64,000 bases of DNA from a virus (Duplodnaviria > Caudoviricetes), in the IMG/VR virus record IMGVR_UViG_3300032295_003392, positions 8,704-72,703 of that record; one strand, given 5' to 3'. Below the pieces are notes generated by a model, which saw only the letters and a program-made list of their open reading frames with translations, did no database searches and had not been told where the DNA came from. The stretch's first letter is position 1. Each line of letters begins with the position of its first letter. Both the position numbers and the translations under genes were made by a program. Of the stretch, positions 2,835 through 50,450 are shown one piece after another.

Positions 2835-2847
2835 TAAACAAATATAA

Positions 2848-3318: not shown

Positions 3319-3342
3319 AATATTTTTTATTTTCAATTTCAG

Positions 3343-3985: not shown

Positions 3986-4017
3986 CAAATGTATAGTATT
4001 TTTTAATACTTGTCAAA
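3986..4017 (-). promoter_or_regulatory. Bacteroidota primary-sigma promoter (TTTG-N20-TACATTTG)
   Basis: Consensus match; ATG 4 nt downstream. Confidence 0.75.
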
Positions 4018-4019
4018 TT

Positions 4020-4028
4020 TAATATATA
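4020..4028 (+). promoter_or_regulatory. TAATATATA motif (candidate late promoter)
   Basis: Exact 9-mer 6 nt before the ATG; seven exact copies sit upstream of genes in this window. Confidence 0.6.
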
Positions 4029-6088: not shown

Positions 6089-6097
6089 TAATATATA
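6089..6097 (+). promoter_or_regulatory. TAATATATA motif (candidate late promoter)
   Basis: Exact 9-mer 5 nt before the ATG. Confidence 0.55.
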
Positions 6098-6763: not shown

Positions 6764-6795
6764 CAAAGATATGAAAGTTTAGTGGATTTTACAAA
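6764..6795 (-). promoter_or_regulatory. Bacteroidota primary-sigma promoter (TTTG-N20-TATCTTTG)
   Basis: Consensus match; ATG 4 nt downstream. Confidence 0.75.
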
Positions 6796-7555: not shown

Positions 7556-9292
7556 ATGATTATTGAAGAAATAGGCATTAGAGGTTTTAAGAGTTTCGGT
7601 AATAACGAACAAACACTAAAACTAAACAGTGATAGTGGTGAGTTAATTTTATTAACTGGTTCGAATGGAAACGGTAAGAGTAGTTTTATCGAAAGTTTCG
7701 AATATGTCCTTTATGGGAAAGTAAAGTCTATGAAAAAGAAAAAATGGGCGACATTATCTACTCTTCCAAATAGAATTAACGGTGAGTTACAAAACCGAAT
7801 AAAGTTTATTTCAAACGGCACTCAAGTGGAAGTCGTTAGAGGTATTTCACCCAATACTTTAAAGCTCACCGAAAATGGTATAGAGAACGACAGGGCTGGG
7901 AAAGCAAACCTTGATGAGAAAATAGAAAACTATATCGGAATGGATATTGAAACTTTCAAGTCATTTATATCCATGTCTATTAACGATTTCAAGAACTTTA
8001 TTAGCTTATCAAATGATGAGAAACAAATGTTACTTGACAAACTCTTCAACCTTGAGGTTATTAATATTCTCAATCAAATACTAAAAGATTTAGTTAAGAC
8101 AAACAAGATTCAACTAGCAAAACATGACTCTGAAATCAATACACTAAATGATTCCATCCAAAGGATAAAGTTGTCTATTGATAAGGCTATTGAAAAGGAA
8201 AAACTCAATATCCAATCCGAAATTGATGAAATCAAACTACAAATCGATTCTAGGAAAGATGAATATCAGAAACTAAAGAAAAAGGTTGAAAAAATAAAAG
8301 AAAAAGAAAATCAACTCAAATCTGAACTCGATAATGAAAGAGAACAATATTCAAAGATTGGACATGAGATAAAATCCGCTCAGAAAGATATTGACCTTTA
8401 TAATTCTGGAAAATGTCCGACTTGCGCAACTGATTTTCTAAATGAACATTTCGAAGGTCTCAAACAAACTCTCATTGAAAAGAAATCAACCCTTGATACA
8501 ATTAAAAAGGAGATTGAGGACAATATGAGGTCTATCAGAGAAAAACAAACTAAACTCCAAGACATCTCAGAAAAAACAACAAAGTCATTCAACGACATCA
8601 CCTATCTTTTAAGAAACTATAAAACACAGATAGATAAACTCCAATCTCAAAAGGACAATGAATCTGGTAAATCAAATGTAAATATTCAAGAGTTCGAAAA
8701 GGCTATTGATGATTTACAAACTAAAAAGACAACAAGTTTCGACAATCAAACTGTATGCAAAGAAAAGGAAACCTATTATAAAGAACTGACTAAGGTATTT
8801 GGTGAAGATGGTGTTAAGAGGACAATTATCTCTGGCATCATCAAACCAATCAACCATTTCATCCAAGAAAACATAAGGAAAATGAATTTACCTTTTCAGG
8901 TAAAACTTGATGAAACTTTCACAGCAGAAATCAAACAGTTTAGCAATACTATTGAACATGATAGTCTGAGCACTGGTGAAACTAAAAAGTTAAATCTTTG
9001 CATTCTAATAGCCTACTTGAAACTAATAAGAACTAAGAAACATATTAACATTTTGTTCTTGGACGAGGTATTTTCAAGTATGGATATTGAATCATGTGAG
9101 TCTATTCTGAATCTCCTAAAGTCATTTGCTAATGAATATAAGATTAATATTTTTGTGGTACATCATGCTATATTAAACCAAGAGTTATTTGATAGGATTC
9201 TACAAATTGAAAAGGATATTTTCACTACGATTAATGAGGTATCAGTTGATGAGGAGGAAAAAGTCAGAGTTGGACACTATACAGTAGTATAG
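7556..9292 (+). CDS. SbcC/Rad50/T4 gp46-like recombination ATPase
   Basis: Walker A GSNGNGKSS, long coiled coil with a CPTC zinc hook, LSTGE signature, Walker B/D-loop LFLDEVFSSMD and H-loop. Confidence 0.92.
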   Translation: MIIEEIGIRGFKSFGNNEQTLKLNSDSGELILLTGSNGNGKSSFIESFEYVLYGKVKSMKKKKWATLSTLPNRINGELQNRIKFISNGTQVEVVRGISPNTLKLTENGIENDRAGKANLDEKIENYIGMDIETFKSFISMSINDFKNFISLSNDEKQMLLDKLFNLEVINILNQILKDLVKTNKIQLAKHDSEINTLNDSIQRIKLSIDKAIEKEKLNIQSEIDEIKLQIDSRKDEYQKLKKKVEKIKEKENQLKSELDNEREQYSKIGHEIKSAQKDIDLYNSGKCPTCATDFLNEHFEGLKQTLIEKKSTLDTIKKEIEDNMRSIREKQTKLQDISEKTTKSFNDITYLLRNYKTQIDKLQSQKDNESGKSNVNIQEFEKAIDDLQTKKTTSFDNQTVCKEKETYYKELTKVFGEDGVKRTIISGIIKPINHFIQENIRKMNLPFQVKLDETFTAEIKQFSNTIEHDSLSTGETKKLNLCILIAYLKLIRTKKHINILFLDEVFSSMDIESCESILNLLKSFANEYKINIFVVHHAILNQELFDRILQIEKDIFTTINEVSVDEEEKVRVGHYTVV

Positions 9293-9828: not shown

Positions 9829-9833
9829 AAAAA

Positions 9834-9842
9834 TATATATTA
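9834..9842 (-). promoter_or_regulatory. TAATATATA motif (candidate late promoter)
   Basis: Exact 9-mer 5 nt before the ATG. Confidence 0.6.
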
Positions 9843-9844
9843 AA

Positions 9845-9869
9845 AACTAAAAATCTTTATTTAATATAA
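9845..9869 (+). promoter_or_regulatory. Candidate AAC-N17-TATAA promoter of the rpsU/dnaJ operon
   Basis: AACTAAAAATCTTTATTTAATATAA, 5 nt before the ATG. Confidence 0.35.
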
Positions 9870-9874
9870 GTTTT

Positions 9875-10132
9875 ATGAAAAATAAAAAAGTCATTCTGAA
9901 ATTTATTTTGATATTTCTTATAAGTTTTATTGTGACCGAACTTGTAGAACATATACTTAATCAATATTTTTGGTTTGATTTTAAGATGATGACTGTGGGG
10001 TGGTTTGGTCTTATGGTTTTCTATGGTTTCAAGTACCACATTATTTGTTGTTTATTTCCTGCTATTTGGGCTGGATATAAATGCAGACATAAATCTTGCG
10101 AACATGAATATTGTCATGATGAAAAAAAATAA
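9875..10132 (+). CDS. Small membrane protein with Cys/His-rich C-terminus
   Basis: Hydrophobic segments followed by CRHKSCEHEYCH. Confidence 0.6.
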   Translation: MKNKKVILKFILIFLISFIVTELVEHILNQYFWFDFKMMTVGWFGLMVFYGFKYHIICCLFPAIWAGYKCRHKSCEHEYCHDEKK

Positions 10133-10140
10133 ATTTATCT

Positions 10141-10485
10141 ATGGCTATTAAAAAACTAACAAATACAAGTGCTACTTGTGGAAATATTTTTCCTGGAACT
10201 AGCACCACTACCGCAAATCCTTACTATTGGGGAACTACGACTACAGGTACCTCAACAGGTGTTTCTAATCTAACTATTACCCCCAGTACTCTTGTATCAA
10301 ATAGTAATTCTATAAGTTGGAGTGATGGTGTTTTTATGAACTCAGATATTATTGAATATATAGATATATTCTATCAGTTTATGGGAATTGATATGGATTA
10401 TGTAAGGTTTTCTAAAATGACTAAAGAAGAAAAGAAAGGATTTATTAGAGACCTTAAACTACAAAAAATAATTGACGACAAATGA
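10141..10485 (+). CDS. Hypothetical protein with Thr/Ser-rich N-terminal half
   Basis: 114 aa; ends FIRDLKLQKIIDDK; overlaps the rpsU start by 4 nt. Confidence 0.65.
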   Translation: MAIKKLTNTSATCGNIFPGTSTTTANPYYWGTTTTGTSTGVSNLTITPSTLVSNSNSISWSDGVFMNSDIIEYIDIFYQFMGIDMDYVRFSKMTKEEKKGFIRDLKLQKIIDDK

Positions 10486-10676
10486 TTATAATTGAGGTAC
10501 AAGGTGGAAAAGATGGATTAGAAAAAGCCTTGAAAAAGTTTAAAAGAAAGTTCGATAAAATCGGCATTACAAAAGAACTCAGAAGAAGAAAAGAGTTTAC
10601 AAAACCCTCCGTTGAAAGAAGAAATGAAATCAAGAAAGCTAAGTGGAGGCAAATGAAACTAGATGAGTTAAATTAA
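10482..10676 (+). CDS. rpsU: Ribosomal protein bS21
   Basis: LEKALKKFKRKF...ELRRRKEFTKPSVERR signature. Confidence 0.92.
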   Translation: MIIIEVQGGKDGLEKALKKFKRKFDKIGITKELRRRKEFTKPSVERRNEIKKAKWRQMKLDELN

Positions 10677-10679
10677 TTT

Positions 10680-11417
10680 ATGGATATTAAGGAACATTTA
10701 GATAAAAATCTTTATGGTATCCTTGGTGTATCAAAGGATGCTACACTCAAAGAAATAAAAAAGGCTTATTACTCTTTGAGCAAGGTCTACCATCCTGACG
10801 CTAATAAAGAATCAGACCCATTAATATTTAATGAAATAACTATTGCTTACGACATTCTCAGTAATGAGGATAGAGAAGAGTGGGATAGGAAGAGTAAATG
10901 GGGTAAGGACTATGATGAATCCCAAGAGCTATTAGATTTTGAATTTGACACCTTGAAGAAAGGGTGGGATCCGGATATCTATGAGAACTGGAAAAGTGAA
11001 AACCAGTTAAATATACTTTTATATGTCGATAAAGATTTCAAAGGAAAAGTTGAATACGAAAGATATGTGAGTTGTAAGACCTGTTCTGGTAGTGGAAAAG
11101 ATTTAGATTCCAAAATAACTATCAGAGATGATGCAGGCAATGTTCTAAAAATATTTGAGGGTACTGATGGGTGTGACTTTTGCGAAGGTACTGGTAAAAG
11201 TTGGATAGGTCAAGATTGTAGTTTTTGTGGTGGGAAAGGAAAAGTTGGTAATGAAGATTGTAAAACCTGCAATGGTGAAAAAAGGATTCTTGGGAAACAA
11301 AAACTAAAAGGAATCAAAATAAAAAAGGGCGAAGAAGCTCACCAAGTCAAATTCATGGGAAATGTATCCAAGGAAGATAAGGATATATTCGGAGACCTAT
11401 GGGTTATTCTTCGCTGA
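10680..11417 (+). CDS. dnaJ: DnaJ-like co-chaperone (J domain + zinc finger, short C-terminus)
   Basis: LYGILGVSKDAT..EIKKAY...HPD; four CxxCxG-type repeats. Confidence 0.88.
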   Translation: MDIKEHLDKNLYGILGVSKDATLKEIKKAYYSLSKVYHPDANKESDPLIFNEITIAYDILSNEDREEWDRKSKWGKDYDESQELLDFEFDTLKKGWDPDIYENWKSENQLNILLYVDKDFKGKVEYERYVSCKTCSGSGKDLDSKITIRDDAGNVLKIFEGTDGCDFCEGTGKSWIGQDCSFCGGKGKVGNEDCKTCNGEKRILGKQKLKGIKIKKGEEAHQVKFMGNVSKEDKDIFGDLWVILR

Positions 11418-14400
11418 CCACATCGTCCCCTAAATCTATCTCCTCAAACGGTTCTGAGTAATTATTGGCGATTGAGGATTTACCCGGGGTTATTGAAATT
11501 CTATTTTGATTATTAATCACTCTGAAATCTATTCCCAAGTCAACGTTTCCTACAAAGTCAAAAGATGTGTCAGTGTAATCTATTATAGGAGCCACTGCAA
11601 CTATAGGATTTTTAACTGTCAAATCAATCGATGCCGTTGCCGATGGGTAATATTTGAAGAACGGAATCATATCCACCTCATATAATCCTATTCTTTTCAA
11701 TTGTATATTCATATTTGTTCTATAAATAACTGGGTCTGGGTTCTGATTAGTAAGTATATCTTGCACACCTATAGTAATATCAAGATTATTCAGGTTATAA
11801 AAATACTCTGATATGGATGTCGTAGATTGAAAGTTCTTAGGTACTAATGTCTGTTGTGGTTGTGTTGCTGTATCAACAAAGTCAAAAGAATATACACCAT
11901 TGAAATTTGGAATTGTCTTAGGGGTCTCCACATCAGCTCGGTAATACCTATTTTCGGGTAGATTTCTAACAAAAGTATTTTTTAGATAAATATTAAATCT
12001 ACCTCTCGATATTTTACCCGGAAAGGTTATATCAAGTACACCCAAAGAAGCTGTACTACTAAGGTTCGAAATCACAGTCATTTCTGTTACCCCACCATTA
12101 TTTAATTGATGGGGGGAATTCCATCCGGTTATACTATCAACGGAATAAGTCCAACCATTATTTGTTAGATTTAATAATCCCAAACTTGGTATGTTCGAGG
12201 CAAATGGTCTTTTGAACTGACCATAATCAACACCGGTTTCTTCATTAAATAGTTTATTAGAATATGCAACACCTTTTGTCCCTAACTTGTATTCAGTAAC
12301 AACATTCGTCCTACTATTTCTCAAGTATGATGTACTACTCAACACATCATCTGTAGCATACCCATTTAAGTTTGGAATTATAGCTTCTGTTTTTTTAGGT
12401 ATTTGTTGAGATTTAGTGCTTGTTCCATACAATATCACATCGAAATTTAAGTTTACTGATGAGTTTGTTCTATATACAACATCTATCCAGGATTGATAAG
12501 AGTTTGAAGGCGCCTGTGCCAAATTCTTATCTTTGAAAATAAAGTTCTGTATCAGTCCAGTATTATAACTAGGTAACCCATTGGATGTTGGGATATTTAT
12601 CGATTTGAAATGACCACCTTCGAAATATCCATCGACAAAATGTGAATCAAACATCTCTGTGGTAGATGGACTTCCTCTAAAAACACCATTAACCCAAACA
12701 CCTTGGAAAAAACCGTTCAAGAAAACACCGTTAAGCCATATATTCTGAGTCAAATATATCAGGTGATTAGTTGAATCTTTAACTATTTGCCTTATTTCAA
12801 AATTGGGCACGAACTCCAATGTAACTTGATTTAGGGCAACATTTATACTCCTAACTTTGAAACTTTGTCTCAATAATCTTCTCTTACCATTTATGTCAAT
12901 AGAGACTATATTACCAATAGAAATTCTTCTTGTAGTTGTTATTCTCGATACACCATCAAACAATTGAATAGTTATTATCCAAGTCGTGTTGTTTAATTTA
13001 TAAGTCTTTGATTGAACCACATCTGTTGCCCTAACCAAATCTTGAATGGTCAATGGAAACCAATCAGCGGACCTGTATCCATTATTCCACACACCATTTT
13101 CCCAAGTACCTGATTTGAAAATTCCATTTCCAAATTTCAATCCAACATCAGAACCATCAGATGATAGGGTTTGATACACCACATCTGGAGTAGATGGTAG
13201 ATTAACAGTTCGGTCTATTAAGTTTACCGATTCTTGTAGTATATTATTTAAGCTAGGGTGATATGTTATTATTTTTGTAGTAACTCTAGCATTTAAAATT
13301 CTCAGTATACCATTCGATTTTTTGGAAATGTAAAATTGTTTTCCAGATAAATCGACCGTATTATCCGTAGTAACATAATATGAAAATTTCAAACTATATA
13401 TCTTAGCATAATAATCATATATTTCTTGCCCATTTTTTGTATAATGATATTCATCACTATCAAGAGCGAATCTAGAGAATGACAATGATCCTACATATAC
13501 CTCCACCTCAACAGTTTTAGCTAACTCAACAGCAACGGATAATGTTACTGTATATTGTTGACCCACTTGGGTGAAGAACGAGGTTGTACCACCGGTAACC
13601 GCATAAAGATTAACAGACTCCGGCACATCGACCAGTGAAACAAATGTTGTTGGGTCATACCTACTGAAAATATTATAACCGTTTAATAAAGACCCTAGAT
13701 TGTAAGAATTCTGACCACCATAAGTTACAATATTATAATCCCTTGAAGTTTCTACCCTTGCAGGTACCTTTACTAAGTAAGAAATTCCACCTATTTCCAA
13801 ACTACCATTTTTTGTAGATTTGACCCGGTTAAATGTCCTCTCAATCTTCCAAGTTGACTTTAAAAGTGGACTTCCAGTAATACTAGCCTTTCTTGGTGAA
13901 GAAAATCCTCCTCCACCACTAATAGTATAGACCAAACCATCATAGGTTTCGGACTGAGAAAATGTCCACCCGGATGAGCCAGTAAGACCATCATTCCTGA
14001 CAAGAGTTTCAGCAGAGGCACTAAAAACATTTATCATGTGAAATGGCTCGTTAGTAAAAGATAATGTGGCACCAGTTGATTGTATAAATTCCGCACGATA
14101 GTCACCAACTTTCAAAAATATTTCCTTTTCCCTACCATCTATCATTGCATAAGTACCGGTTGCATCCAATGCAACTTTAGAAAAGTCATAAGGAGATCCA
14201 TCCCAATTGCCATTTCTCCAAGTACCATCCATCCAGAATATATTTTCAGCAGTTCCATATTCCCAAGTACCATTTTCCCATTTGGCACCGGACATATAAC
14301 CAGATTTAAATAAACCTCTTTTCCAATTTGAATACCAAAATGAACCCGTTTTAAAAATCCCATCGAACCACACAGCGTTTTCACCAAAAGTTGAATTTGA

Positions 14401-17400
14401 AAAACTACCAGTGAAATCTCTGTCTATGTACGGATTGAACACCCCACCATCAAATGTGCCTCTTCTGAAAGACCCATTCAACCATAAGGAATTCACTATA
14501 GAAGCACTGTCATGAGTAAATGTTCCACCCATCCACAAAACGTTCTCGAAAGCCGTCTGAACAGGTTGATTACCAATCTGAACCTCAATATCTTGACCAG
14601 CGTTAGTTCCTTCTTGGTCTGGCAACTCAGTTAGATTTTTCAAAACATAACCATCTTTCCAAATACCATAATATTCTGTTGTAAAACTATTGGCATAATC
14701 GAATTCATAAATAGAGGAACTGCTTGATATTATTCCAGATGTTGTACCACTTCCAAAAAATTTACCATTTGCAAAATAACCATTATTCCAAAATCTACCT
14801 GAGAAAATACCTGATATAAATCTACCACCATACCAAACTGAGTTTGCCGTCAAACCGCCATATCCGAAATCACCAGAGTTGAAATTACCAGCTTCCCATG
14901 AATAGTCGGTTGGGTTTGATGATGAATTTGTTGGACCAACATTTTCCCACCCATAGTAAGACCAGAATTTACCATTATTAAATGTACCATCCTTCCATCT
15001 CGCTAAATGTGTTATTCGGCTACCATTAAACTCACCATTGTACCATATTGTTTCATTTGAATCTGTTGCGCCATAACTGGTTAGTTCACCAGAATTAAAT
15101 ATACCATTATACCAATATACTTTTCCATAACCACCCATTAAAGCATTTTCAACGGTTCCTAATCTCCACAAAGATTGTGTCTCACCTATACTCAAATAGT
15201 TATAGTGCCCGAATGTAGTATCTTTGTAAGATAAATTGTTTCTTCCGAGTGTACCGTTTACCCAAGTACCCCCATAGAAATCGGAATAATAGAATTTACC
15301 ATTTAAAAAATCACCACCTAACCAAATAGAATTGAAAAACTCACCAGTCTGAAACTTTCCAGACAACCAACCCCTCCATATAACATTACTATCGAAACTA
15401 AGAGACTCACCAGTGTAATCCTCACCTTGATTCATCCCTCTTGAATTTATAACTCTACCACTTAGGAAATTACCATTTTGCCAGAAACCCGATGAGAAAA
15501 TTCCACTACTAAACGTACCACCATTCCAAATAGCACTATGTACTATTCCAGAATTAAAATTACCGTCGACAAAATGAGATTTGTAGATGACACCATCATT
15601 TATTGTCAAATTATTTGATTTGAAAATAATATTTATCAATCGTAAATTATTCAAATTGTTGGGTAATAAATCACTATCGAAATTATTAAATGATGGGTTA
15701 TCAAAGACAATATTTTTGAAAGATGACCTTTTGAAAAATCCAGAAATGATTGTGGAATTTTCGATTGAGAGTTTACTCAAAGTTGTATATGTATTAGTCT
15801 CTGCCCCAAATATTGAATAAGTGGCACCAAATTGTTTGAACGATTCAGTTGAAAATTGAGGTGTTATCGTTACAATCGTATTTGTGTTATTTCTTGATGG
15901 GGTATTAGTAACCAACCATCTTCCAGAAAGTGATACAGAATATGTACCATATAAATACTCAACAGAGTTTAACCAAACAGAGTCACCTCTTTTTATATCA
16001 AAACCTTGAGTGTCATGAGTCGAATCATATTTCCTGTTTCTTAAATAAACACTAAGTTGTGTATCGGAAAAATACTGAATATTCAATGACCCATTATTGT
16101 TATCAATAATATTACCAAAATAATTTTGATTATAACCACCTCTCCAAGTTGAGTTTATAAATAATCCACTCCTTATATCCGAAACTTTGATGTAATTCCC
16201 TTCAAATGCGCTTTTAGTATCATTTATAGGCAATTTGGTGAAATCCGAACCAAGAGATATTGAACTTGGTTTGTAAACTTTATTCGAGTTCAAATCAAGA
16301 TACCACCCAAATGAATCACTGTCTATATCTATGGAACTGTAATTTACTACATTTGGTACAGTAGTATGTTTTTTAAATATTTGTGGGGCTGTTATATAAT
16401 CTGTCAAAAATGTATTAGCATCAACAAAACCTGGATTCGTAAAATCCTCCGTACTGTTTAGACAAGCATATAAATAATTCAAGTCATCATTCGGTTCATA
16501 ACCCAAGACATAATCATCAACAGTATTTATTAATGTGGAATCATAAATGCCACTATATGTCCCCATTCTTTTCCAGGCATAATCTACAATAACTCCCAAA
16601 TCTTCACTACCTGGTATTGGATTACTATCTGTAAAACCTGTATATTTATAAATTGTATCTATGGAATTAGCAAGACCAAGAACATAACTACCCGAAGCGT
16701 AAACCCCAAATTCATCCCAGTTTCCGTTATAATTTTCAATTCTTTCCCAATACTGTATCGAATTTATAGTATCGACATTTGGATGAAAATACTCTGTTGT
16801 TACTTGTTCGGTTGTCTCTTCTACAAAAAATTTGGTTTTATTCACATTTATTGGTTTCAAGGAAACACTTATAACTGCCTTTCTATCTGGAGTATCAGGT
16901 GTGGTGTAAATTTCGTAATCATCATATAAATCCATCAAATACTTATTTTCAATCGACAAATGCACACGGTCATCCGAATTTAGATTTGTTAGAAAATAGT
17001 CTTTGTTTATTTTTTCGATGTAAAGAGAATCACCCTTTTCCAATCTAAGGAAATCTTTATCACTTATGTATAATTTTAAAACACCACGTATGGGTTCGAA
17101 ATCAGTACGGGTGTAATTAGCTAAGCTTGGTTCAAATGTTGGGTCATATGACCAAATATCAGCATCCAAAATTTCAATCCCTCCTTCGGAAATATACTGC
17201 GTATCATTCATCACCGAATCTATAAATTGGTTATTAACCAATTTCGATTTAAACACAACCGAATCTTTTATTATACTATCAGAAATGTTCGAATTTGCAA
17301 TGTTAGTTGTGTAGACATCACAAAAGTTTAATCTACTACCATCAGTCGTCACCGAATAGGTTAATCCATTCTCATAAAATTGTTCGATTATATTTGTACT

Positions 17401-18657
17401 ATATGATAGTCCTATATTACAATTCTCAAAGTTTCCCTTTTTTACATTTGACACCTTAACATCCGAGTCTTGAATGTAATTGAAACCAAATCCTCTGTTA
17501 TTTGTTATATCCCTATTTTGTAAAACGCTTTTTGTACCACCGGTGATATCAATCTTAGCAGTAAAACTCGTCCTACTCCTAGATTTATTATTCATGTCAC
17601 CAAGGTTCCATTGTCCGTTTACAAAAAATCCTGAATCCCAAGTCGCATTGTCCCACTTAGCAACTCTATCATAAGAGCCAAATACGCCATCTTTATGGAT
17701 TCCTTTAAACACACCATACCTAAAGTTTAATCTTGAAATAACTGGTTGTTTGTATTCTTTATCAAAAACCCAACCACCGGAATTTCCATCAGTTGGGTCC
17801 CATTTATAAACTTGCCTTTCTCTATATGTTTTTCCCTCCAAAGTAAAGTCTTCACCAATCACAACAAATCTAGTTGCTTGTCTAAAACCTGTCTCAGAAG
17901 AACTATCATCCAAATAAACCTCACCAGATGTGAACCCATTGGAAGCAGCAGCCCATAATGAATCTGATTGTTTAACAAAAAGGCTTGGTTCACTGAGTAG
18001 TATTTCAGAAGAGGGACTTACTGAACTTGTTGAACCAGTGAAAGATGTTTCGGAAAAAATCATATTTTGTCCGTATAAATATGTAGCTTGATTTCCCCTT
18101 GAGGCACGATATCCAAAAAACATAGAATACACACCCTCGGAAACAGTGGATTGTGACAAACCGATTCTTAAAGAGTTTATGTAATCAAATTGAGCTTGTG
18201 TCTTTATGTTGTGGATAAAAAATAAATCCTCTAAATTGTAATCTTTATACGGTAGGTCTCCGGTATAATCTATATCTAAAATTATTTTACACCCATCAAC
18301 ACCCAATACTCTATAACCATCAGAAAATTTCTCATATTTATATTTCTGTATAAAATCATCAGAATCATAAAAACCATTTAGAACGAAGACTCTATCCCCC
18401 ACATTGAATTCTGTAGCTAACTCCGAATAGAAAGCGGTTTTATTCTGACCAAAAATATTTACTGGCTCAACATAATTCAACAGTTTTGAAGCGTAGAATT
18501 CATTGCTTACCGTAGTATTTGTTATTGTCGTGGTATTTTGAGTGGCTGCAAGATTAGCAATAAGTTGAAACCCACTGTCCACCAACGGTTTTGAACTTAC
18601 AACTGGAACCTTTGTTATTTTACCTTTAGATATGTTACTGAGATTATTAAGAGCCAT
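11404..18657 (-). CDS. Giant (2417 aa) putative virion protein with W/F-x-x-G-x pentapeptide repeats
   Basis: Uninterrupted ORF rich in N/S/T/G and aromatic residues; repeat blocks such as WENGTWEYG and WMDGTWRNGNWDG; TAATATATA upstream. Confidence 0.8.
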   Translation of the reverse strand: MALNNLSNISKGKITKVPVVSSKPLVDSGFQLIANLAATQNTTTITNTTVSNEFYASKLLNYVEPVNIFGQNKTAFYSELATEFNVGDRVFVLNGFYDSDDFIQKYKYEKFSDGYRVLGVDGCKIILDIDYTGDLPYKDYNLEDLFFIHNIKTQAQFDYINSLRIGLSQSTVSEGVYSMFFGYRASRGNQATYLYGQNMIFSETSFTGSTSSVSPSSEILLSEPSLFVKQSDSLWAAASNGFTSGEVYLDDSSSETGFRQATRFVVIGEDFTLEGKTYRERQVYKWDPTDGNSGGWVFDKEYKQPVISRLNFRYGVFKGIHKDGVFGSYDRVAKWDNATWDSGFFVNGQWNLGDMNNKSRSRTSFTAKIDITGGTKSVLQNRDITNNRGFGFNYIQDSDVKVSNVKKGNFENCNIGLSYSTNIIEQFYENGLTYSVTTDGSRLNFCDVYTTNIANSNISDSIIKDSVVFKSKLVNNQFIDSVMNDTQYISEGGIEILDADIWSYDPTFEPSLANYTRTDFEPIRGVLKLYISDKDFLRLEKGDSLYIEKINKDYFLTNLNSDDRVHLSIENKYLMDLYDDYEIYTTPDTPDRKAVISVSLKPINVNKTKFFVEETTEQVTTEYFHPNVDTINSIQYWERIENYNGNWDEFGVYASGSYVLGLANSIDTIYKYTGFTDSNPIPGSEDLGVIVDYAWKRMGTYSGIYDSTLINTVDDYVLGYEPNDDLNYLYACLNSTEDFTNPGFVDANTFLTDYITAPQIFKKHTTVPNVVNYSSIDIDSDSFGWYLDLNSNKVYKPSSISLGSDFTKLPINDTKSAFEGNYIKVSDIRSGLFINSTWRGGYNQNYFGNIIDNNNGSLNIQYFSDTQLSVYLRNRKYDSTHDTQGFDIKRGDSVWLNSVEYLYGTYSVSLSGRWLVTNTPSRNNTNTIVTITPQFSTESFKQFGATYSIFGAETNTYTTLSKLSIENSTIISGFFKRSSFKNIVFDNPSFNNFDSDLLPNNLNNLRLINIIFKSNNLTINDGVIYKSHFVDGNFNSGIVHSAIWNGGTFSSGIFSSGFWQNGNFLSGRVINSRGMNQGEDYTGESLSFDSNVIWRGWLSGKFQTGEFFNSIWLGGDFLNGKFYYSDFYGGTWVNGTLGRNNLSYKDTTFGHYNYLSIGETQSLWRLGTVENALMGGYGKVYWYNGIFNSGELTSYGATDSNETIWYNGEFNGSRITHLARWKDGTFNNGKFWSYYGWENVGPTNSSSNPTDYSWEAGNFNSGDFGYGGLTANSVWYGGRFISGIFSGRFWNNGYFANGKFFGSGTTSGIISSSSSIYEFDYANSFTTEYYGIWKDGYVLKNLTELPDQEGTNAGQDIEVQIGNQPVQTAFENVLWMGGTFTHDSASIVNSLWLNGSFRRGTFDGGVFNPYIDRDFTGSFSNSTFGENAVWFDGIFKTGSFWYSNWKRGLFKSGYMSGAKWENGTWEYGTAENIFWMDGTWRNGNWDGSPYDFSKVALDATGTYAMIDGREKEIFLKVGDYRAEFIQSTGATLSFTNEPFHMINVFSASAETLVRNDGLTGSSGWTFSQSETYDGLVYTISGGGGFSSPRKASITGSPLLKSTWKIERTFNRVKSTKNGSLEIGGISYLVKVPARVETSRDYNIVTYGGQNSYNLGSLLNGYNIFSRYDPTTFVSLVDVPESVNLYAVTGGTTSFFTQVGQQYTVTLSVAVELAKTVEVEVYVGSLSFSRFALDSDEYHYTKNGQEIYDYYAKIYSLKFSYYVTTDNTVDLSGKQFYISKKSNGILRILNARVTTKIITYHPSLNNILQESVNLIDRTVNLPSTPDVVYQTLSSDGSDVGLKFGNGIFKSGTWENGVWNNGYRSADWFPLTIQDLVRATDVVQSKTYKLNNTTWIITIQLFDGVSRITTTRRISIGNIVSIDINGKRRLLRQSFKVRSINVALNQVTLEFVPNFEIRQIVKDSTNHLIYLTQNIWLNGVFLNGFFQGVWVNGVFRGSPSTTEMFDSHFVDGYFEGGHFKSINIPTSNGLPSYNTGLIQNFIFKDKNLAQAPSNSYQSWIDVVYRTNSSVNLNFDVILYGTSTKSQQIPKKTEAIIPNLNGYATDDVLSSTSYLRNSRTNVVTEYKLGTKGVAYSNKLFNEETGVDYGQFKRPFASNIPSLGLLNLTNNGWTYSVDSITGWNSPHQLNNGGVTEMTVISNLSSTASLGVLDITFPGKISRGRFNIYLKNTFVRNLPENRYYRADVETPKTIPNFNGVYSFDFVDTATQPQQTLVPKNFQSTTSISEYFYNLNNLDITIGVQDILTNQNPDPVIYRTNMNIQLKRIGLYEVDMIPFFKYYPSATASIDLTVKNPIVAVAPIIDYTDTSFDFVGNVDLGIDFRVINNQNRISITPGKSSIANNYSEPFEEIDLGDDVVSEE

Positions 18658-18680
18658 CCGATAATAAATACTTATTTACG

Positions 18681-18689
18681 TATATATTA
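18681..18689 (-). promoter_or_regulatory. TAATATATA motif (candidate late promoter)
   Basis: Exact 9-mer 23 nt before the ATG. Confidence 0.6.
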
Positions 18690-18710
18690 AAGTAAAAGTT
18701 CGACCAGTCT

Positions 18711-19829
18711 TTATTTCGGAACCTTATTAAATTCTTCTTTGTCATTCGATATATAAAAGTTATCGAATAAGAAATATTTATCATATATCTCTCTTATTTT
18801 ATCGAGAGTGACTGTATCAATTATCTCTTTTACATTCCAACCTTTTGGCTGTATCCACCTATTTACATTTGTATATCTGTTTATCTTATCTTTCTCTAAT
18901 TTAATGAGATAAGAATTTTTAATAGTATCAAATCTTTCTTTTGTTAAGAATTTGTCAGGGTTTTTAATAACATATTTAGTAGCATCAACAAGTTTATCAA
19001 CATTTTGTGTAGTTGTTTGTGTTGTAATACTAGTAAATCCTTGATTATTAAATCTTGACTGACCACACCTCACATAATAAACCAAACCACGTTTCTCTCT
19101 GAGCTCAACGTATAGTGGAGAAGACAAACCAAGAGACAACATAGAGTTAATAAAAGTTATGTAATGGTTATCCTCTTGAATGAGAGGGGCTGTCATTATT
19201 AAAGATACTTTATCACCATAGTCAGGTCTTTTTTCCAATATGACATCATTGTGAGGACCCATATTTAAAATTCTATCAAAAGTTAGTTCATTGAACTCCC
19301 CATCATATCTGAATGCGTTTTTTGGAGAGACATTTATTATTTTTGATGGTTTTGAAAATTGTTTCTCAAAAAAATCCAAACCATCCATAAATCTCATTGA
19401 TTCCAAATCCTGTCTTAACCCAATCGCATCATAGTTTTGATAAAGTTTTCTTAATAAATTCAATAAGTGTGATTCAGTTTGGTCACTAAAATAGTCACCA
19501 TATTCCTGCATAACAATCTTTTTTTCATTTTCGAATTGTTCCTTTGTGATGTTAAACTCACTCATCAAATCCATTATCTCATACTTTCTTTTGCTTAGAT
19601 AATCATCCAGACCAGTGAAATAAAACACTATCTCATTTTGAGATGTATAAGCATTCCATTCAATGCCTTCTTTTTCGAAAGTCTCTCTGAGATGTTCAAA
19701 GTTTTTACACATCAAATGTTCCATAAGATGAGATATACCATATATACCCCTATCTTCAAGTAAAGTAGAACCACTATAAACTATGTAAAAACCAGAAAGA
19801 TTTGTTTGACTCTTTAAGTTTACAACCAT
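18711..19829 (-). CDS. M16 family zinc peptidase
   Basis: Inverted zincin GISHLMEHL, WNAYTS, and C-half LYVELREKRGLVY. Confidence 0.9.
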   Translation of the reverse strand: MVVNLKSQTNLSGFYIVYSGSTLLEDRGIYGISHLMEHLMCKNFEHLRETFEKEGIEWNAYTSQNEIVFYFTGLDDYLSKRKYEIMDLMSEFNITKEQFENEKKIVMQEYGDYFSDQTESHLLNLLRKLYQNYDAIGLRQDLESMRFMDGLDFFEKQFSKPSKIINVSPKNAFRYDGEFNELTFDRILNMGPHNDVILEKRPDYGDKVSLIMTAPLIQEDNHYITFINSMLSLGLSSPLYVELREKRGLVYYVRCGQSRFNNQGFTSITTQTTTQNVDKLVDATKYVIKNPDKFLTKERFDTIKNSYLIKLEKDKINRYTNVNRWIQPKGWNVKEIIDTVTLDKIREIYDKYFLFDNFYISNDKEEFNKVPK

Positions 19830-19830
19830 A

Positions 19831-20346
19831 TCAATAAAATGAAATCACGATTTGTTCTGACTCTTCGAATACATCCGCTGTAAATGTTTTTGAAAAATCT
19901 ATTATGGACTTTTTTACTTGTTGTGTATTGAAAGTTTTTTCATTGCTTCCAGATGTTTTTCGTGCAGATATTCCAGAATCAACTATCTCACTTATTTTTT
20001 GAATTTTAAAAACCTCTTTTTCTTCCTCACTCTTTTCAACTTGAGCATTTTCAACATATATTGAAAAGTTAATTAAATCGGTTATTTCTTCAATTGGGAT
20101 AATCACAGAATTTCCCTCTATCTTAGAAATTTTCTTCATTTTCTCAACCATTTTCAATTTATTTGTAAATGTTGAAGAAAACCTTTCGCTCAAAAAATTA
20201 AAAAGAATATTATTGTAAAAAGATTCACAAGTCTTATCAAGGAATTTTTCCTCTGTGATACCCAATCTTTTTAGTTCAAAATCATTCCTACTCAATCCCT
20301 CCTTATAGGCATTTATAAAGGAATATCTATTTTTATCTATAAACAT
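19831..20346 (-). CDS. Hypothetical protein
   Basis: 171 aa; 1-nt gap to the M16 gene; TAATATATA upstream. Confidence 0.65.
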   Translation of the reverse strand: MFIDKNRYSFINAYKEGLSRNDFELKRLGITEEKFLDKTCESFYNNILFNFLSERFSSTFTNKLKMVEKMKKISKIEGNSVIIPIEEITDLINFSIYVENAQVEKSEEEKEVFKIQKISEIVDSGISARKTSGSNEKTFNTQQVKKSIIDFSKTFTADVFEESEQIVISFY

Positions 20347-20363
20347 TTTTTTATTGTTTTTTT

Positions 20364-20372
20364 TATATATTA
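20364..20372 (-). promoter_or_regulatory. TAATATATA motif (candidate late promoter)
   Basis: Exact 9-mer 17 nt before the ATG. Confidence 0.55.
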
Positions 20373-20412
20373 ATAAATATTTTGCTTATTTTTGTACCCA
20401 CAAATCAAAAAT

Positions 20413-21042
20413 ATGAAAATAGCACTAACAGGTAATTATTATTCGGGCCAAGACGAAGTCACATTTCTTCTAAGAGATAAGAACGTTCCAGTGTTCGATG
20501 CTGATGTAGTTTTGAAATACTTTCTGAACTTTTCACCTAAACACATGAATAAGATATCAAGAGTTTTTGGTGAGGATTATTATAGTTACGGTCTACTTAG
20601 ATTGAATCTTTTCAAAACAACAAAAGATTGGGATAGACTCCTGAATGTTGTAGAATATGACCTCCTACAGTGTTATGAAAAGTTTAGAATCAAACACATA
20701 AACTCACCCTACACCGTATTCAAATGTTCTTATCTTTTTGAAAGAAATCTTCAAGATAATTTCGATAAAGTTATCTGCGCCTATAGACCAAAAAGTTATA
20801 GAAAACATGATATAAAAACCTACACACACCTAGACGATACATCTACTGAACTTATTTTATCAACTGAAATGAGTGAACTTTATAAGAATAAAAAATCACA
20901 TTATATAGTCTACAATTATAATCTAACTGGTGATAAATTTTCAGATGTTGTCACTGGTCTAGAAAAAAGAATAGACCAAATACATCGGTCTATTCTTAAA
21001 AGTACATATAGTCCCAAAGACTATGAGGATTTCTATTATTAA
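20413..21042 (+). CDS. Dephospho-CoA kinase (CoaE)-like protein with degenerate P-loop
   Basis: MKIALTG...VFDADVV and YLFE...FDKVICAY follow the CoaE pattern, but the Walker A reads GNYYSGQD. Confidence 0.7.
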   Translation: MKIALTGNYYSGQDEVTFLLRDKNVPVFDADVVLKYFLNFSPKHMNKISRVFGEDYYSYGLLRLNLFKTTKDWDRLLNVVEYDLLQCYEKFRIKHINSPYTVFKCSYLFERNLQDNFDKVICAYRPKSYRKHDIKTYTHLDDTSTELILSTEMSELYKNKKSHYIVYNYNLTGDKFSDVVTGLEKRIDQIHRSILKSTYSPKDYEDFYY

Positions 21043-21386
21043 ACTGTCTTGATAACAATATCCTCACCAGTCTCAGCAATCATCTTGAATGTAGTCAGTG
21101 ATTTTACGATAAGATACCTATCAAGGTCGTTGAAATGTTTTTTGTCATAAGAAACCTGTACAGCATTTACAAGAATGTTCATCGCTGTGGTTGGATCTAA
21201 TGTTTCGGCCTTAATCAATTCCTTGATTTCCTCCATTCTTTCCTTTTCTTCCTCAGTGAGTTTTGATTCGTCAAAGGCTGGATAAGAACCATCTTCGATG
21301 TAATCTGCATTTTCATTTAGGTTTTCAGTAACTTGTTGATTGGTTTGTGTTTCATCCCCAATGTTTTCTACATTTTCAGCATTCAT
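21039..21386 (-). CDS. Acidic hypothetical protein (start moved to MNAEN)
   Basis: The upstream in-frame extension is A-rich intergenic-like sequence overlapping the divergent promoter. Confidence 0.6.
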   Translation of the reverse strand: MNAENVENIGDETQTNQQVTENLNENADYIEDGSYPAFDESKLTEEEKERMEEIKELIKAETLDPTTAMNILVNAVQVSYDKKHFNDLDRYLIVKSLTTFKMIAETGEDIVIKTV

Positions 21387-21417
21387 AAAATTCTTTTTTT
21401 TATTTTTATTTATTTTT

Positions 21418-21448
21418 TTTGGAATGTTTCCCTTTTTTCGTAAATTTG
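21418..21448 (+). promoter_or_regulatory. Bacteroidota primary-sigma promoter (TTTG-N19-TAAATTTG)
   Basis: Consensus match; ATG 4 nt downstream. Confidence 0.7.
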
Positions 21449-21452
21449 TCAT

Positions 21453-22196
21453 ATGAATGTAATTTGCATAAAATCAACCAAGAGGTTAGTAAAAAATGCC
21501 ACCTATAAAGTAGCGAAATTTAGCAATATCAATGCTCAATCAAGTAGATATTTTAGACCTTCAATTACCATTTATCTTTCCGATACTGTTTTCGCAACTT
21601 TCCCATTAGAAAGTTTCAAGCCAACTGTTGGTGATACATTTCAAACTATTAACTGGGTATCTCAAGAATATTCACAATTCTTATCTGAACGTGAGCAAAC
21701 ACAAATAACTAAAGATTTGAAAGCGGGTGAATATGTCGTACCAAAGTATGATTCTCTAAAAACACTAATTAGAGGAAGAAAATATAAAGTGACTGATATA
21801 AAGATTGACAGCCATAAAAACCACGCGGGAGTCGTCACATACAGTACTATAGAAATTAAGTTAGATGGATCTAACAGATATTATAGTTCACACAATTTCA
21901 GAAAATGCACACAACAAGAAATGCGTGAGATTGGACTCAATGAACTTTTTGATGAAAAGAGTGAAACAGAGAAAGTGAATCGATTCAAAAGAAAGTTTGA
22001 TTACTTAACACCAGAAGAAAAAAAGTTAGTTCTTTTAAAACATGTTATCGTTTCAGCCAATGATAGGTTCAGAAATAGTATGGACATTATTGATTGGACT
22101 ATTGAAAAAACTGGTAAAACATATAATCTAAAAACATCAGACTTTGAAGATTTAAAGACACTAACTCTAACAGATATACTTGATATTCTTAAATAA
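21453..22196 (+). CDS. Hypothetical protein
   Basis: 247-aa ORF bounded by a promoter and a terminator. Confidence 0.7.
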   Translation: MNVICIKSTKRLVKNATYKVAKFSNINAQSSRYFRPSITIYLSDTVFATFPLESFKPTVGDTFQTINWVSQEYSQFLSEREQTQITKDLKAGEYVVPKYDSLKTLIRGRKYKVTDIKIDSHKNHAGVVTYSTIEIKLDGSNRYYSSHNFRKCTQQEMREIGLNELFDEKSETEKVNRFKRKFDYLTPEEKKLVLLKHVIVSANDRFRNSMDIIDWTIEKTGKTYNLKTSDFEDLKTLTLTDILDILK

Positions 22197-22224
22197 AAAA
22201 GGGGGTTTAAAACCCCCTTTTTTT
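22195..22224. terminator. Bidirectional rho-independent terminator
   Basis: A6-GGGGGTTTAAAACCCCC-T7 between convergent genes. Confidence 0.85.
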
Positions 22225-23317
22225 ATGCTACACTCAAGAATATTTTTCTTGCTGACCTATCGACAGCGATGACTTTAACCTTGACCTCTTGACCAGATAC
22301 TATTTTCTGGTTGGTTTTATCAATTTCAGATGTGTGAATCAAAGCATTTGTTTCTTCATCCAAAGATACAAGAGCCCCAAAGGGTTTGATATCCTTAACT
22401 TTACCACTTAGGATCTGACCAACTTTGATAGTATCCCAAAGAGTCTCTCTCAGAATTTGTGTGAGAATAATCTTATCCCTGATGATTTCCTTGATGAAGA
22501 ACTCAATAGTCATACCAGGTGTAATCTCACTAATTTGAATACCACTGTTTGGGTTCATATTGGTTTTGTGAATCATACCAGTCAAACATTCATTGAACTC
22601 AACAAATACACCGAACTCAGTGGTCCCAGTTACTTGTCCAACATAAATCTTTCCATGTTCAAGTGCTCTGATTGATTGTGGGATAAGACTTTGTAGATAC
22701 TTTCTACGACTTACAATATAAGTTCCCTCTTCCCTAGAATAAGACTCAATCATCACATCGAATGTCTGACCAATGATAGATTCTGGTTTTGCTAGTTTAT
22801 TAATACCAGCGAGTGTATTTGGCATAAACCCTGGTAAACTCACACCCTCAAACTGAATGTCTACAGAATATCCTGCTGGTGTTGATTCTCTAACATAACA
22901 AACAACCGCTGAACCTTCTTCGAGTTCTGTAAGATTTTTCCTAGCGATTCCCTCATAGAGTTCAACAAAACTAGCTTTGATAAAAAAGTCATCTTCGTTG
23001 ATTTCCGTGATGAAAACATCTAATTGTTCACCAATCTCAGTGTTCTTTAAATAAGCAGCCTCACTCGGTTTATTTTCGATTCTAACAAAATCTTTGAACC
23101 CTCCATCAAAAATAAAATAGTTTTGAGAGATACCCAAATATAAAACCTTTGTCATTTGACCGGCCTGTGGTGGTGTTACCTCATACTGGTCATAAAGTGA
23201 TTGTAGTTCTTCCCTTTCCCTTTCTGTCTTTTTTAACTTTTCGAGTGTTTCAACATCGTTTGCGAATAATTCAGGATATAAATACCTGACATCACCATAT
23301 ACTTTCTTTTTTCCCAT
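22223..23317 (-). CDS. rpsA: Ribosomal protein bS1-like, four S1 domains
   Basis: S1 repeats: GQTFDVMIESYSREEGTYIVSRRKYL, GKIYVGQVTGTTEFGVFVEF and GQILSGKVKDIKPFGALVSL...IHTSEI. Confidence 0.85.
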   Translation of the reverse strand: MGKKKVYGDVRYLYPELFANDVETLEKLKKTEREREELQSLYDQYEVTPPQAGQMTKVLYLGISQNYFIFDGGFKDFVRIENKPSEAAYLKNTEIGEQLDVFITEINEDDFFIKASFVELYEGIARKNLTELEEGSAVVCYVRESTPAGYSVDIQFEGVSLPGFMPNTLAGINKLAKPESIIGQTFDVMIESYSREEGTYIVSRRKYLQSLIPQSIRALEHGKIYVGQVTGTTEFGVFVEFNECLTGMIHKTNMNPNSGIQISEITPGMTIEFFIKEIIRDKIILTQILRETLWDTIKVGQILSGKVKDIKPFGALVSLDEETNALIHTSEIDKTNQKIVSGQEVKVKVIAVDRSARKIFLSVA

Positions 23318-23361: not shown

Positions 23362-23736
23362 TTATGATTTAAGATTTTTTTTGGATTTTATGTTTTTTAA
23401 ATAGTCTCGTATTCTTATTGCATCTTCATACCTTTCTTCTACTATACAATTCTGTAGTTCATTTTCCAGTTCCTTTATCACATCTTCGTTAAATGATTTA
23501 CCAGTATCAGATTTGGTTATAAGTTTTTTGAAAAAGTCTGTCATTTGGTCTATATTTAAAAAATATACAGATGCCAATTTTGACTCATCTACATCTTTCT
23601 TTTCAAAGTTTTTCAATTTATCAAAAAAATCTTTATTCAAAGCATCGTTATCAATTAAATATTTCGCAAGGTGGTTTGGTCGGTTTATGAAAAACTTCAA
23701 AAATTTAGATAGAGTTTTATATTGTTCTTCCCCCAT
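23362..23736 (-). CDS. Small protein with C-terminal UVR (UvrB/UvrC) motif
   Basis: LENELQNCIVEERYEDAIRIRDYLK. Confidence 0.75.
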   Translation of the reverse strand: MGEEQYKTLSKFLKFFINRPNHLAKYLIDNDALNKDFFDKLKNFEKKDVDESKLASVYFLNIDQMTDFFKKLITKSDTGKSFNEDVIKELENELQNCIVEERYEDAIRIRDYLKNIKSKKNLKS

Positions 23737-23741
23737 CCTTA

Positions 23742-24428
23742 TTATAGTTTTTTAAAGTAAATATTGTAATAATATTTGAATGAGAAATCCTCAGCGTTTT
23801 TCGTTTGTTTAAAAGAAATTTGTACCAATGAATTATCCTCAGTGTATACTGGTGTGAATGTCGTGAATTTATTAGCATCACCTTCTATAAACGGGTCGAA
23901 TATGTTTTTATATTGTAAAGTATTATCACCACACAAATCAACAGGCAGTAAGAAAATCTCTAATTTATCCACAGTATATCTTGAATAGATATTTTTGTCT
24001 ATATAATCAAATATTGCGGTATCTACACTATTTTCCAAAACGTGTTCATTTTTGACACCCTCAAATGTTCTGTATCTTTTCAGAGTAGCAAAAAGATAAT
24101 TCCTCATTATGGTTTTCAAATTTATAGTTAAAACCCACTTTGTTAAATCCCTCTTTTCGTCATCCGTTTGAACACCAAAGGCAAGTCTGTGATTCACATT
24201 CTTATCGATAGTCGCATCATATACAATTTCTGGCAACTCTAACTCGTTGTCCAAATCTCTTTGTTCCCCATTACCAGCTTGATAATAAACTAAGTTATCT
24301 TTTAATATTGACAAAGAATCTTCGATTTCCATCATTTTTGAACCAAAAAACGCACAGTCTTCCCTCATATTTAGTGTTCCATAAACTCTGTTGTAAATAA
24401 ACTCAGGACTGATATAGGTTCTTCTCAT
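23742..24428 (-). CDS. Hypothetical protein, putative virion component
   Basis: 228 aa; tightly packed downstream of the 1443-aa ORF. Confidence 0.65.
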   Translation of the reverse strand: MRRTYISPEFIYNRVYGTLNMREDCAFFGSKMMEIEDSLSILKDNLVYYQAGNGEQRDLDNELELPEIVYDATIDKNVNHRLAFGVQTDDEKRDLTKWVLTINLKTIMRNYLFATLKRYRTFEGVKNEHVLENSVDTAIFDYIDKNIYSRYTVDKLEIFLLPVDLCGDNTLQYKNIFDPFIEGDANKFTTFTPVYTEDNSLVQISFKQTKNAEDFSFKYYYNIYFKKL

Positions 24429-24440
24429 TTGTATAAAAAA

Positions 24441-28772: not shown

Positions 28773-28800
28773 TTTTATTTATTTTATTTCTAAATTATAT

Positions 28801-32026: not shown

Positions 32027-32035
32027 TATATATTA
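32027..32035 (-). promoter_or_regulatory. TAATATATA motif (candidate late promoter)
   Basis: Exact 9-mer 25 nt before the ATG. Confidence 0.6.
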
Positions 32036-36634: not shown

Positions 36635-36665
36635 TTTGAAATGATATATAACTTTCATATCTTTG
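36635..36665 (+). promoter_or_regulatory. Bacteroidota primary-sigma promoter (TTTG-N19-TATCTTTG)
   Basis: Consensus match; shares 18 nt (AACTTTCATATCTTTGTA) with the promoter at 6764-6795. Confidence 0.75.
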
Positions 36666-41420: not shown

Positions 41421-41429
41421 TATATATTA
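41421..41429 (-). promoter_or_regulatory. TAATATATA motif (candidate late promoter)
   Basis: Exact 9-mer 6 nt before the ATG. Confidence 0.6.
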
Positions 41430-46739: not shown

Positions 46740-46740
46740 G

Positions 46741-47328: not shown

Positions 47329-47343
47329 AATAAATAATAATTT

Positions 47344-50447: not shown

Positions 50448-50450
50448 AAT

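Follow-up and report, generated by a model that had tools for sequence, protein, structure and literature searches.

A bS21 homologue and a shortened bS1 homologue in a fragment of a huge phage of Bacteroidota, and their possible part in translation initiation without Shine-Dalgarno sequences

Why should a phage carry genes for two proteins of the small ribosomal subunit? The question is raised by a stretch of 64,000 nucleotides (hereafter the window; positions 8704-72703 of the 72.7-kb IMG/VR virus record IMGVR_UViG_3300032295_003392), which encodes a homologue of ribosomal protein bS21 (S21) and a shortened homologue of bS1 (S1). An initial annotation had interpreted the two as a system that reprograms translation initiation, in which the phage swaps both proteins to redirect ribosomes in the course of infection. 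In part this interpretation stands: both genes are real, and the genome lacks Shine-Dalgarno (SD) sequences. The S21 protein, however, is host-like, which argues for keeping the initiation mode of the host, and S1 and S21 do not appear to be one co-inherited system.

The S21 protein is of the Bacteroidota type and scores above both curated cut-offs (47.4 bits against PF01165, cut-off 27; 48.1 bits against TIGR00030, cut-off 28.95). Its residues 1-63 align with residues 1-62 of bS21 of F. johnsoniae (PDB 7JIL_z; E 2e-12), i.e. over the full length, and its 80 closest cellular relatives all belong to the Bacteroidota, with identities of up to 63%. In the Bacteroidia the signature residue Tyr54 of bS21 stacks on A1534, which turns the anti-SD sequence into a pocket of bS21 (PMC7797042). 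Trp55 of the phage protein aligns with this Tyr54, so that the aromatic residue is retained and could stack on A1534 in the same way. Together with its weakly basic C-terminus, this gives the phage S21 the Bacteroidia-type signature. Trp followed by Arg or Lys is common to the nearest phage relatives, and a host-like Tyr-Ile is found in a sister phage subclade. The protein is as long as the host copies and has no N-terminal extension; a one-residue insertion is found in the first loop. Since the aromatic residue, the length and the absence of an extension are all host-like, the phage S21 looks built to preserve the SD-blind, S1-dependent initiation mode of the host and not to alter it.

The start codon of the S21 gene overlaps the stop codon of the preceding open reading frame (ORF; ATGA), and no SD sequence precedes it. 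The gene would therefore escape the SD-based autoregulation that has been described for rpsU of the Flavobacteriia. The GGAGG formed by the codons of Trp55 and Arg56 was considered as a regulatory SD sequence and rejected, as the window contains this pentamer at 57 other places. The lack of SD sequences before genes, noticed already in the initial annotation, extends over the whole window: an SD motif (GGAG, GAGG or AGGA at positions -20 to -4) was found in 0 of 66 genes, against 4.9 expected. The upstream regions are rich in A (56-65% at positions -17 to -13 and up to 65% between -17 and -11, against 35% overall), and G is scarce in them (2-8% at most positions between -21 and -1).

The S1 protein (364 amino acids) indeed has four OB domains, and its gene indeed ends the operon predicted from 32001 down to 22223. 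An AlphaFold model (47 family members; predicted local distance difference test score, pLDDT, 82.7) shows short helices at residues 10-18, a long helix at residues 22-44 and the four OB domains, and its top Foldseek match is E. coli bS1 on the 30S subunit (9GUT_B; E 7e-23). The protein is colinear with residues 18-345 of E. coli S1 and with positions 21-373 of the 580 of NF004952. For a comparison with cellular proteins we used four Bacteroidota bS1 sequences (588-662 amino acids) from genomes whose S21 resembles the phage S21. The phage protein is 22-24% identical to these and colinear with them from the region before the first domain (D1) through D4; it ends directly after D4, where D5 begins, and is without D5, D6 and the C-terminal tail that complete bS1 in Bacteroidota and Proteobacteria.

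A domain-by-domain profile comparison (hhalign) between phage and bacterial S1 paired phage D1 best with bacterial D1 (53.6; next best 26.9), D2 with D2 (57.9; D1 36.0) and D4 with D4 (84.5; D5 77.2), and D3 found its best match in D5 (63.0), followed by D4 (44.5) and D3 (42.7). From these profiles, the phage S1 reads as D1-D4 with genuine D1/D2 identity; the D1/D2 character on which the initial annotation had made its proposal depend is thus present. D3 and D4 match the RNA-binding type and, as two canonical RNA-binding domains, have kept the motifs FG-x-F-V and G-x-I-H. Before D1, a helix-loop-helix of the same size as its counterpart in F. johnsoniae is predicted at residues 10-44 (pLDDT 62-81). 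The phage segment before D1 scored 17.5 (E ~1e-3) with the corresponding bacterial segment, and other pairings that involve either of these segments scored at most 9.4. In this N-terminal region the phage protein has a motif of its own, K-K-x-x-Y-G-D. Its Gly8 and Asp9 do not vary across the phage S1 family and its Tyr7 hardly does; Tyr42 likewise is invariant or nearly so. The family is large: an exhaustive search at E <=1e-30 gave 119 representatives of clusters, of which almost every one listed has 350-400 amino acids, and longer multi-domain S1-like proteins, of unassigned origin, appear only from about E 1e-33.

The best matches of the S1 protein are encoded by 'uncultured phage' genomes of 634-735 kb (LR745206, LR756502, LR756501/3 and LR756504), with lower-scoring matches in LR756500 and Lak phages of Prevotella. 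Over 88%, it is 57-59% identical to its counterparts in LR745206 and LR756502; for LR756501 and LR756504 the identity is 40-43%. These four genomes represent the Mahaphages, a clade described by Al-Shayeb et al. 2020, for which Bacteroidetes were predicted as hosts (PMC7162821). The window is a fragment of such a Mahaphage-type huge phage (the source record is 18% complete according to CheckV) infecting Bacteroidota. The host assignment is supported by the cellular relatives of S21, all 80 of which are from this phylum, and by an enrichment of Bacteroidetes-type promoters.

For this bipartite promoter (TTTG-N18-21-TAnnTTTG) the window has 13 matches where 3.5 are expected, and 0 of 100 shuffled sequences had as many as 13. 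Six copies end 4-12 nucleotides before an ATG (Table 1), from which leaderless or nearly leaderless transcripts of the host RNA polymerase are probable. A second element, TAATATATA, is present in seven copies, each of them 5-25 nucleotides before an ATG on the same strand. The spacer measures 5-6 nucleotides for four genes, which again predicts leaderless mRNAs, and 17, 23 and 25 nucleotides for the genes encoding proteins of 171, 2417 and 1066 amino acids, respectively. The element is retained before the orthologous genes for a protein of 1067 amino acids in one relative (L012) and for one of 2406 amino acids in another (L014), and because of this conservation we consider it a real regulatory element. 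What had been said initially of leaderless mRNAs, of A-rich leaders and of short and long spacers is thus borne out, as far as promoter positions can tell. A phage ECF-type sigma factor (Table 1) could be the reader of one phage-specific promoter class. A scan of the window for sigma-70 and terminator consensus sequences gave nothing above shuffled sequences and was uninformative here.

The initial annotation had called for a survey of the co-occurrence of rpsA and rpsU. A hidden Markov model (HMM) search found S21 in four of the five Mahaphage genomes that have S1. A close relative of S1 is encoded by 32 IMG/VR contigs, of which 14 have S21; by completeness the latter amount to 4/6 contigs at least 90% complete, 10/12 at least 60% complete and 3/16 less than 35% complete. 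Co-occurrence is therefore frequent, judged by the contigs at least 60% complete, and not obligatory, judged by those at least 90% complete: the pair of S1 and S21 is frequent but dispensable. A tblastn search of the phage collection with the S21 sequence of 64 amino acids gave no match, which proved to be an artefact of sensitivity, as the HMM search found S21 in the same records.

The distance between the two genes is about 10-40 kb in the 14 IMG/VR contigs and in two Mahaphage genomes (11.5 kb in the window) and exceeds 100 kb in LR756501 and LR756504; the genes are never adjacent. Their identities to the window copies range from 53 to 68% for S1 and from 45 to 98% for S21 across the contigs, and the spread for phage S21 is as wide as that of cellular Bacteroidota S21 proteins compared with the window copy. 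In a tree of the phage copies with 80 cellular S21 proteins (64 columns, long branches) the phage sequences are not united in a single group: no fewer than three label changes are needed to satisfy the well-supported branches, and single phage copies adjoin Saprospiraceae, Flavobacteriaceae and a metagenome-assembled genome of the Bacteroidia. A single origin of phage S21 is unsupported by this tree, as none of 200 bootstrap trees contained one phage group, a result that is suggestive only. The tree suggests that S21 was acquired several times, which would agree with the repeated exchange of bS21 between viruses and hosts described by Mizuno et al. (PMC6375957). S1 seems to be one old phage family and S21 to track the host, so that the pair looks like two genes that are maintained separately, not like a module inherited as a unit.

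The link between bS1 and bS21 in F. johnsoniae offers a concrete reason why a phage of Bacteroidota should hold both genes. There, residues 1-42 of bS1 fold into a helix-loop-helix, the aromatic helix of which touches uS8 and uS2; bS21 keeps the anti-SD sequence hidden and stabilises uS2 and the N-terminus of bS1, which is disordered without bS21; and unless the ribosome contains bS21, bS1 does not stimulate SD-less initiation (PMC13000457). What we infer beyond the genes and domains themselves is that phage S1 and S21 bind ribosomes, with whatever benefit and timing this may have. The phage encodes those two proteins of the 30S platform whose binding is loosest: an S21 that should be compatible with the host, and an S1 that appears to have kept the ribosome-side half (N-terminal peptide, D1 and D2) together with the RNA-binding D3 and D4. 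During infection both would load onto host 30S subunits, and the share of ribosomes with bS21 bound, the anti-SD sequence hidden and S1 bound would be kept up or raised. From this bound state Bacteroidia initiate on SD-less, A-rich leaders, of the kind that nearly every gene of the window has, and the phage copies would be independent of a shut-off of host genes. That the two proteins in this way keep the ribosomes replete with S21 and S1, free of host autoregulation and shut-off, is the reading we prefer, and we judge it about evenly balanced between right and wrong. A further step, which we think improbable, is that the two are a matched pair on the host 30S platform, with S21 stabilising the docking of the N-terminus of the phage S1, as bS21 of F. 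johnsoniae does for its bS1, and with an S1 without D5 and D6 biasing initiation towards the unstructured, A-rich or leaderless mRNAs of the phage over those of the host.

Several observations weigh against a ribosomal role for the S1 protein in particular. It remains far below every rpsA equivalog cut-off (132 against 624 for NF000907, 119 against 524 for NF004952 and 102 against 577 for TIGR00717), and reaches 71.5 bits with NF004953, where Bacteroidota bS1 proteins reach 930-950; because of this latter difference S1, in contrast to S21, does not look like a recent copy of a host gene. The putative N-terminal docking peptide matches its bacterial counterpart weakly (the hhalign score given above corresponds to a probability of 21%); of the host motif F-[DN]-W it has Phe18, which aligns with the first Phe, but no Trp. 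Moreover, D1-D2 of S1 can also dock proteins outside the ribosome, as in Q-beta replicase (PDB 4Q7J and 4R71, both among the fold matches), and in two of the six relatives with a completeness of at least 90% S1 occurs without S21. The S1 protein might have its site of action away from the ribosome, where it could serve a phage RNA enzyme as cofactor, protect mRNA or work as an RNA chaperone, with S21 alone on the ribosome and the co-occurrence a matter of huge-phage gene content. The failed thresholds, the distinct family of 350-400 amino acids with its low identity to Bacteroidota bS1, the non-ribosomal partners in the two solved structures, and the fact that the genes are never adjacent and their identities to the window copies do not track each other would all fit, as does the wording of Al-Shayeb et al. 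('possible rpS1', 'on or off the ribosome'; PMC7162821). We nevertheless consider it unlikely, since the domain-specific identity of D1 and D2 and the colinear region before D1 have been kept, Tyr7, Gly8, Asp9 and Tyr42 are invariant or nearly so, as expected of a docking peptide, and the gene is associated with SD-less genomes, both in published phages (PMC7162821) and here (0/66).

The exchange originally proposed, in which both proteins are replaced on a schedule and re-aim the ribosomes, e.g. from leaderless early to A-rich leadered late mRNAs, would imply an altered mRNA selectivity. Two leader classes do exist (host-type promoters 4-12 nucleotides before six start codons, and TAATATATA with spacers of 5-6 or 17-25 nucleotides), the loss of D5-D6 could change the choice of mRNAs, the insertion makes the N-terminal loop of the phage S21 different from that of host copies, and published hypotheses point in the same direction (PMC7162821, PMC9723584). 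However, TAATATATA precedes short and long spacers alike, so that leader length does not split temporal classes; S21 retains the host-type features that hold the anti-SD sequence; and all gene classes of the window share the host-type SD-less, A-rich context, with nothing visible that sets phage mRNAs apart. We thus regard a timed exchange as rather improbable. The same shortened S1, with D1/D2 kept and D5-D6 lost, might also be a competitive blocker, which takes the uS2 site, displaces host S1 and silences host mRNAs that depend on D5-D6, while the unstructured or leaderless mRNAs of the phage still initiate; probable leaderless phage genes are indeed present. In work attributed to Byrgazov et al. 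in 2012, over-produced N-terminal fragments of S1 reportedly rendered E. coli ribosomes selective for leaderless mRNA, which would speak for such a blocker. For a pure blocker, on the other hand, the two canonical RNA-binding domains would be needless, and most genes of the window are preceded by A-rich leaders of the type that depends on S1, so that we think this explanation improbable. Sequence alone does not separate the reading of replete ribosomes from these three rivals.

The surroundings of the two genes are conserved in part. S21 is the third gene of a cluster (ORF85-ORF114-S21-DnaJ-like), the order of which is kept in L014 as ORF85-ORF118-S21-DnaJ; the cluster neighbours RecA-like, SbcC-like and GreA-like genes, again as in L014. 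The two small ORFs gave no family matches, and the DnaJ-like protein (87.5 bits) stays below the cut-off of TIGR02349. S1 is the last of five co-directional genes, separated by gaps of 28, 12, 5 and 44 nucleotides. The 658-kb relative L012, whose S1 is 65% identical, repeats this order: a GT2 gene, then genes for 1067, 1327, 229 and 135 amino acids, and S1. No TAATATATA box lies directly before S1, either in the window or in the relative, and co-transcription of S1 with the block behind the box at 32027-32035 is plausible. An attempt to class the block as late by its neighbours failed. The protein of 1066 amino acids matches phrog_29329 (function unassigned in PHROGs) and gave just a sub-threshold tail-fibre lead in Atlas (score 0.87), which gave nothing for the protein of 1443 amino acids; Pfam and PHROGs scans yielded no structural matches in the block and no recognisable virion gene in the window. 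L012 also encodes a protein with a bL12 domain (PF00542; 13626-14102, minus strand) about 2.5 kb from S1; a bL12 gene was looked for in the record of the window and is absent from it.

The remainder of the window, which is AT-rich (G+C about 32%) and densely coding (68 ORFs by a crude ORF caller), includes further genes related to translation, transcription and protein quality control (Table 1). The protein that resembles deoxyhypusine and homospermidine synthases has 'homospermidine biosynthesis protein' as its best NCBIfam match (123 bits, cut-off 450). A class II aminoacyl-tRNA-synthetase-like core is encoded about 1.6 kb away from it, and the pair may be polyamine or translation-factor-modifying enzymes. 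In the ClpB/ClpA-like AAA+ unfoldase the alignment to ClpB starts at about model position 125, and the usual N-domain is apparently missing.

Table 1. Positions in the window of S21, S1, their surroundings, promoter-like elements and other features
Feature	Position	Strand	Remarks
bS21 homologue, Bacteroidota type	10482-10676	+	64 amino acids; PF01165 and TIGR00030
Two small ORFs	9875-10485	+	85 and 114 amino acids; precede S21 in a co-directional cluster
DnaJ-like J-protein	10680-11417	+	J domain and zinc-finger region; 3 nucleotides downstream of S21; PF00226 2e-17; protein quality control
Divergent intergenic region	9829-9874
Degenerate TTAATATA	9861-9868	+	6 nucleotides before the first ORF of the S21 cluster
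Shortened bS1 homologue	22223-23317	-	364 amino acids; helix-loop-helix ~10-44; OB domains 55-116, 137-203, 224-286, 302-363
Four genes upstream of S1	23362-32001	-	1066 amino acids; 1443 amino acids (probable ATG 28769); 228 amino acids; 124 amino acids with UVR motif
TAATATATA box	4020-4028	+
TAATATATA box	6089-6097	+
TAATATATA box	9834-9842	-	in the divergent intergenic region; serves a gene for 183 amino acids
TAATATATA box	18681-18689	-
TAATATATA box	20364-20372	-
TAATATATA box	32027-32035	-	promoter-like; 25 nucleotides before the first gene of the S1 block
TAATATATA box	41421-41429	-
Bipartite promoter	2839-2869	-	ends 4-12 nucleotides before ATG (as do the five below)
Bipartite promoter	3986-4017	-
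Bipartite promoter	6764-6795	-
Bipartite promoter	21418-21448	+
Bipartite promoter	36635-36665	+
Bipartite promoter	41438-41468	+
tRNA-Cys(GCA)	1790-1861	-
tRNA-Arg(TCT)	2100-2171	-
GreA/GreB-type transcript-cleavage factor	2848-3336	-	upstream of the S21 cluster
RecA-like ATPase	4442-5668	+	upstream of the S21 cluster
SbcC/Rad50-like ATPase	7556-9292	+	upstream of the S21 cluster
M16 peptidase	18711-19829	-	protein quality control
ECF-type sigma factor	34090-34698	+	nearest: Bacteroidetes subfamily TIGR02985, 99 bits (cut-off 126)
Deoxyhypusine/homospermidine-synthase-like protein	35620-36591	+	PF01916 2.6e-41
Class II aminoacyl-tRNA-synthetase-like core	38234-39079	-	281 amino acids; PF00152 1.9e-11; without anticodon domain
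Peptidase phrog_4191	41481-42581	+	protein quality control
ClpB/ClpA-like AAA+ unfoldase	43151-45268	+	protein quality control
Glycan-modification island	45271-63304	+	long co-directional run of glycosyltransferase, sugar-epimerase and methyltransferase genes

The pair of genes (PMC7162821) and the idea that such phages capture host ribosomes (PMC7162821, PMC9723584) have been published before, and the window adds another example. Our additions are the reading of S1 at the level of domains (D1-D4, with apparently genuine D1/D2), Trp as a variant of the signature residue of S21, the counts of co-occurrence, the host-like rather than divergent character of S21, and indications of separate histories of S21 and S1. 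Should the two phage proteins indeed become part of Bacteroidota ribosomes, this would be a natural case of a virus that edits the composition of the ribosome, and it would give a handle on the control of SD-less initiation, which is now tractable in F. johnsoniae. The matched pair, if true, would amount to a real specialised ribosome made by a virus.

Among the genes of huge phages, Al-Shayeb et al. 2020 named both rpS1 and rpS21; they observed that SD motifs are rare in phages with a possible rpS1, and proposed substitution into, or hijacking of, host ribosomes (PMC7162821). The window shares with the Mahaphages the S1 family, an S21 (present in 4/5 of their genomes with S1), the predicted Bacteroidetes hosts and the lack of SD sequences. 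It differs in that its S21 is without the N-terminal extension which that paper describes for some phage S21 proteins, and S1 is here resolved into a helix-loop-helix and D1-D4. For phages of freshwater Bacteroidetes, Chen et al. 2022 proposed that bS21 enters host ribosomes, possibly with a role late in infection (PMC9723584). Their bS21 is likewise host-like, with an aromatic residue at the position of Tyr54, for which Tyr, His and Phe are listed, whereas the window S21 has Trp. Moreover, their bS21 gene lies in a capsid and terminase module, whereas that of the window is grouped with two small ORFs and the gene for the DnaJ-like protein, and RecA-like and SbcC-like genes are close by; their genomes do not exceed 331 kb, and S1 is not discussed (PMC9723584). 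Mizuno et al. 2019 found that viruses preferentially carry exchangeable ribosomal proteins, of which bS21 is the commonest and was repeatedly acquired from hosts. In their heterologous test a pelagiphage bS21 entered E. coli 70S ribosomes, which were then nearly inactive; S1 was not characterised (PMC6375957).

Compared with the cellular proteins of the Bacteroidia (F. johnsoniae ribosome; PMC7797042, PMC13000457), the phage S21 agrees in length and fold register, with an identity of up to 63% to Bacteroidota copies, and its gene differs in being without the autoregulatory SD sequence. The phage S1 corresponds to bS1 of F. johnsoniae in its colinear N-terminal region and D1-D4, with a helix-loop-helix predicted before D1 (PMC13000457). 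It departs from cellular bS1 in its identity of 22-24% to the Bacteroidota proteins, in the absence of D5, D6, the tail and the Trp of F-[DN]-W, and in scores that lie far below the rpsA cut-offs.

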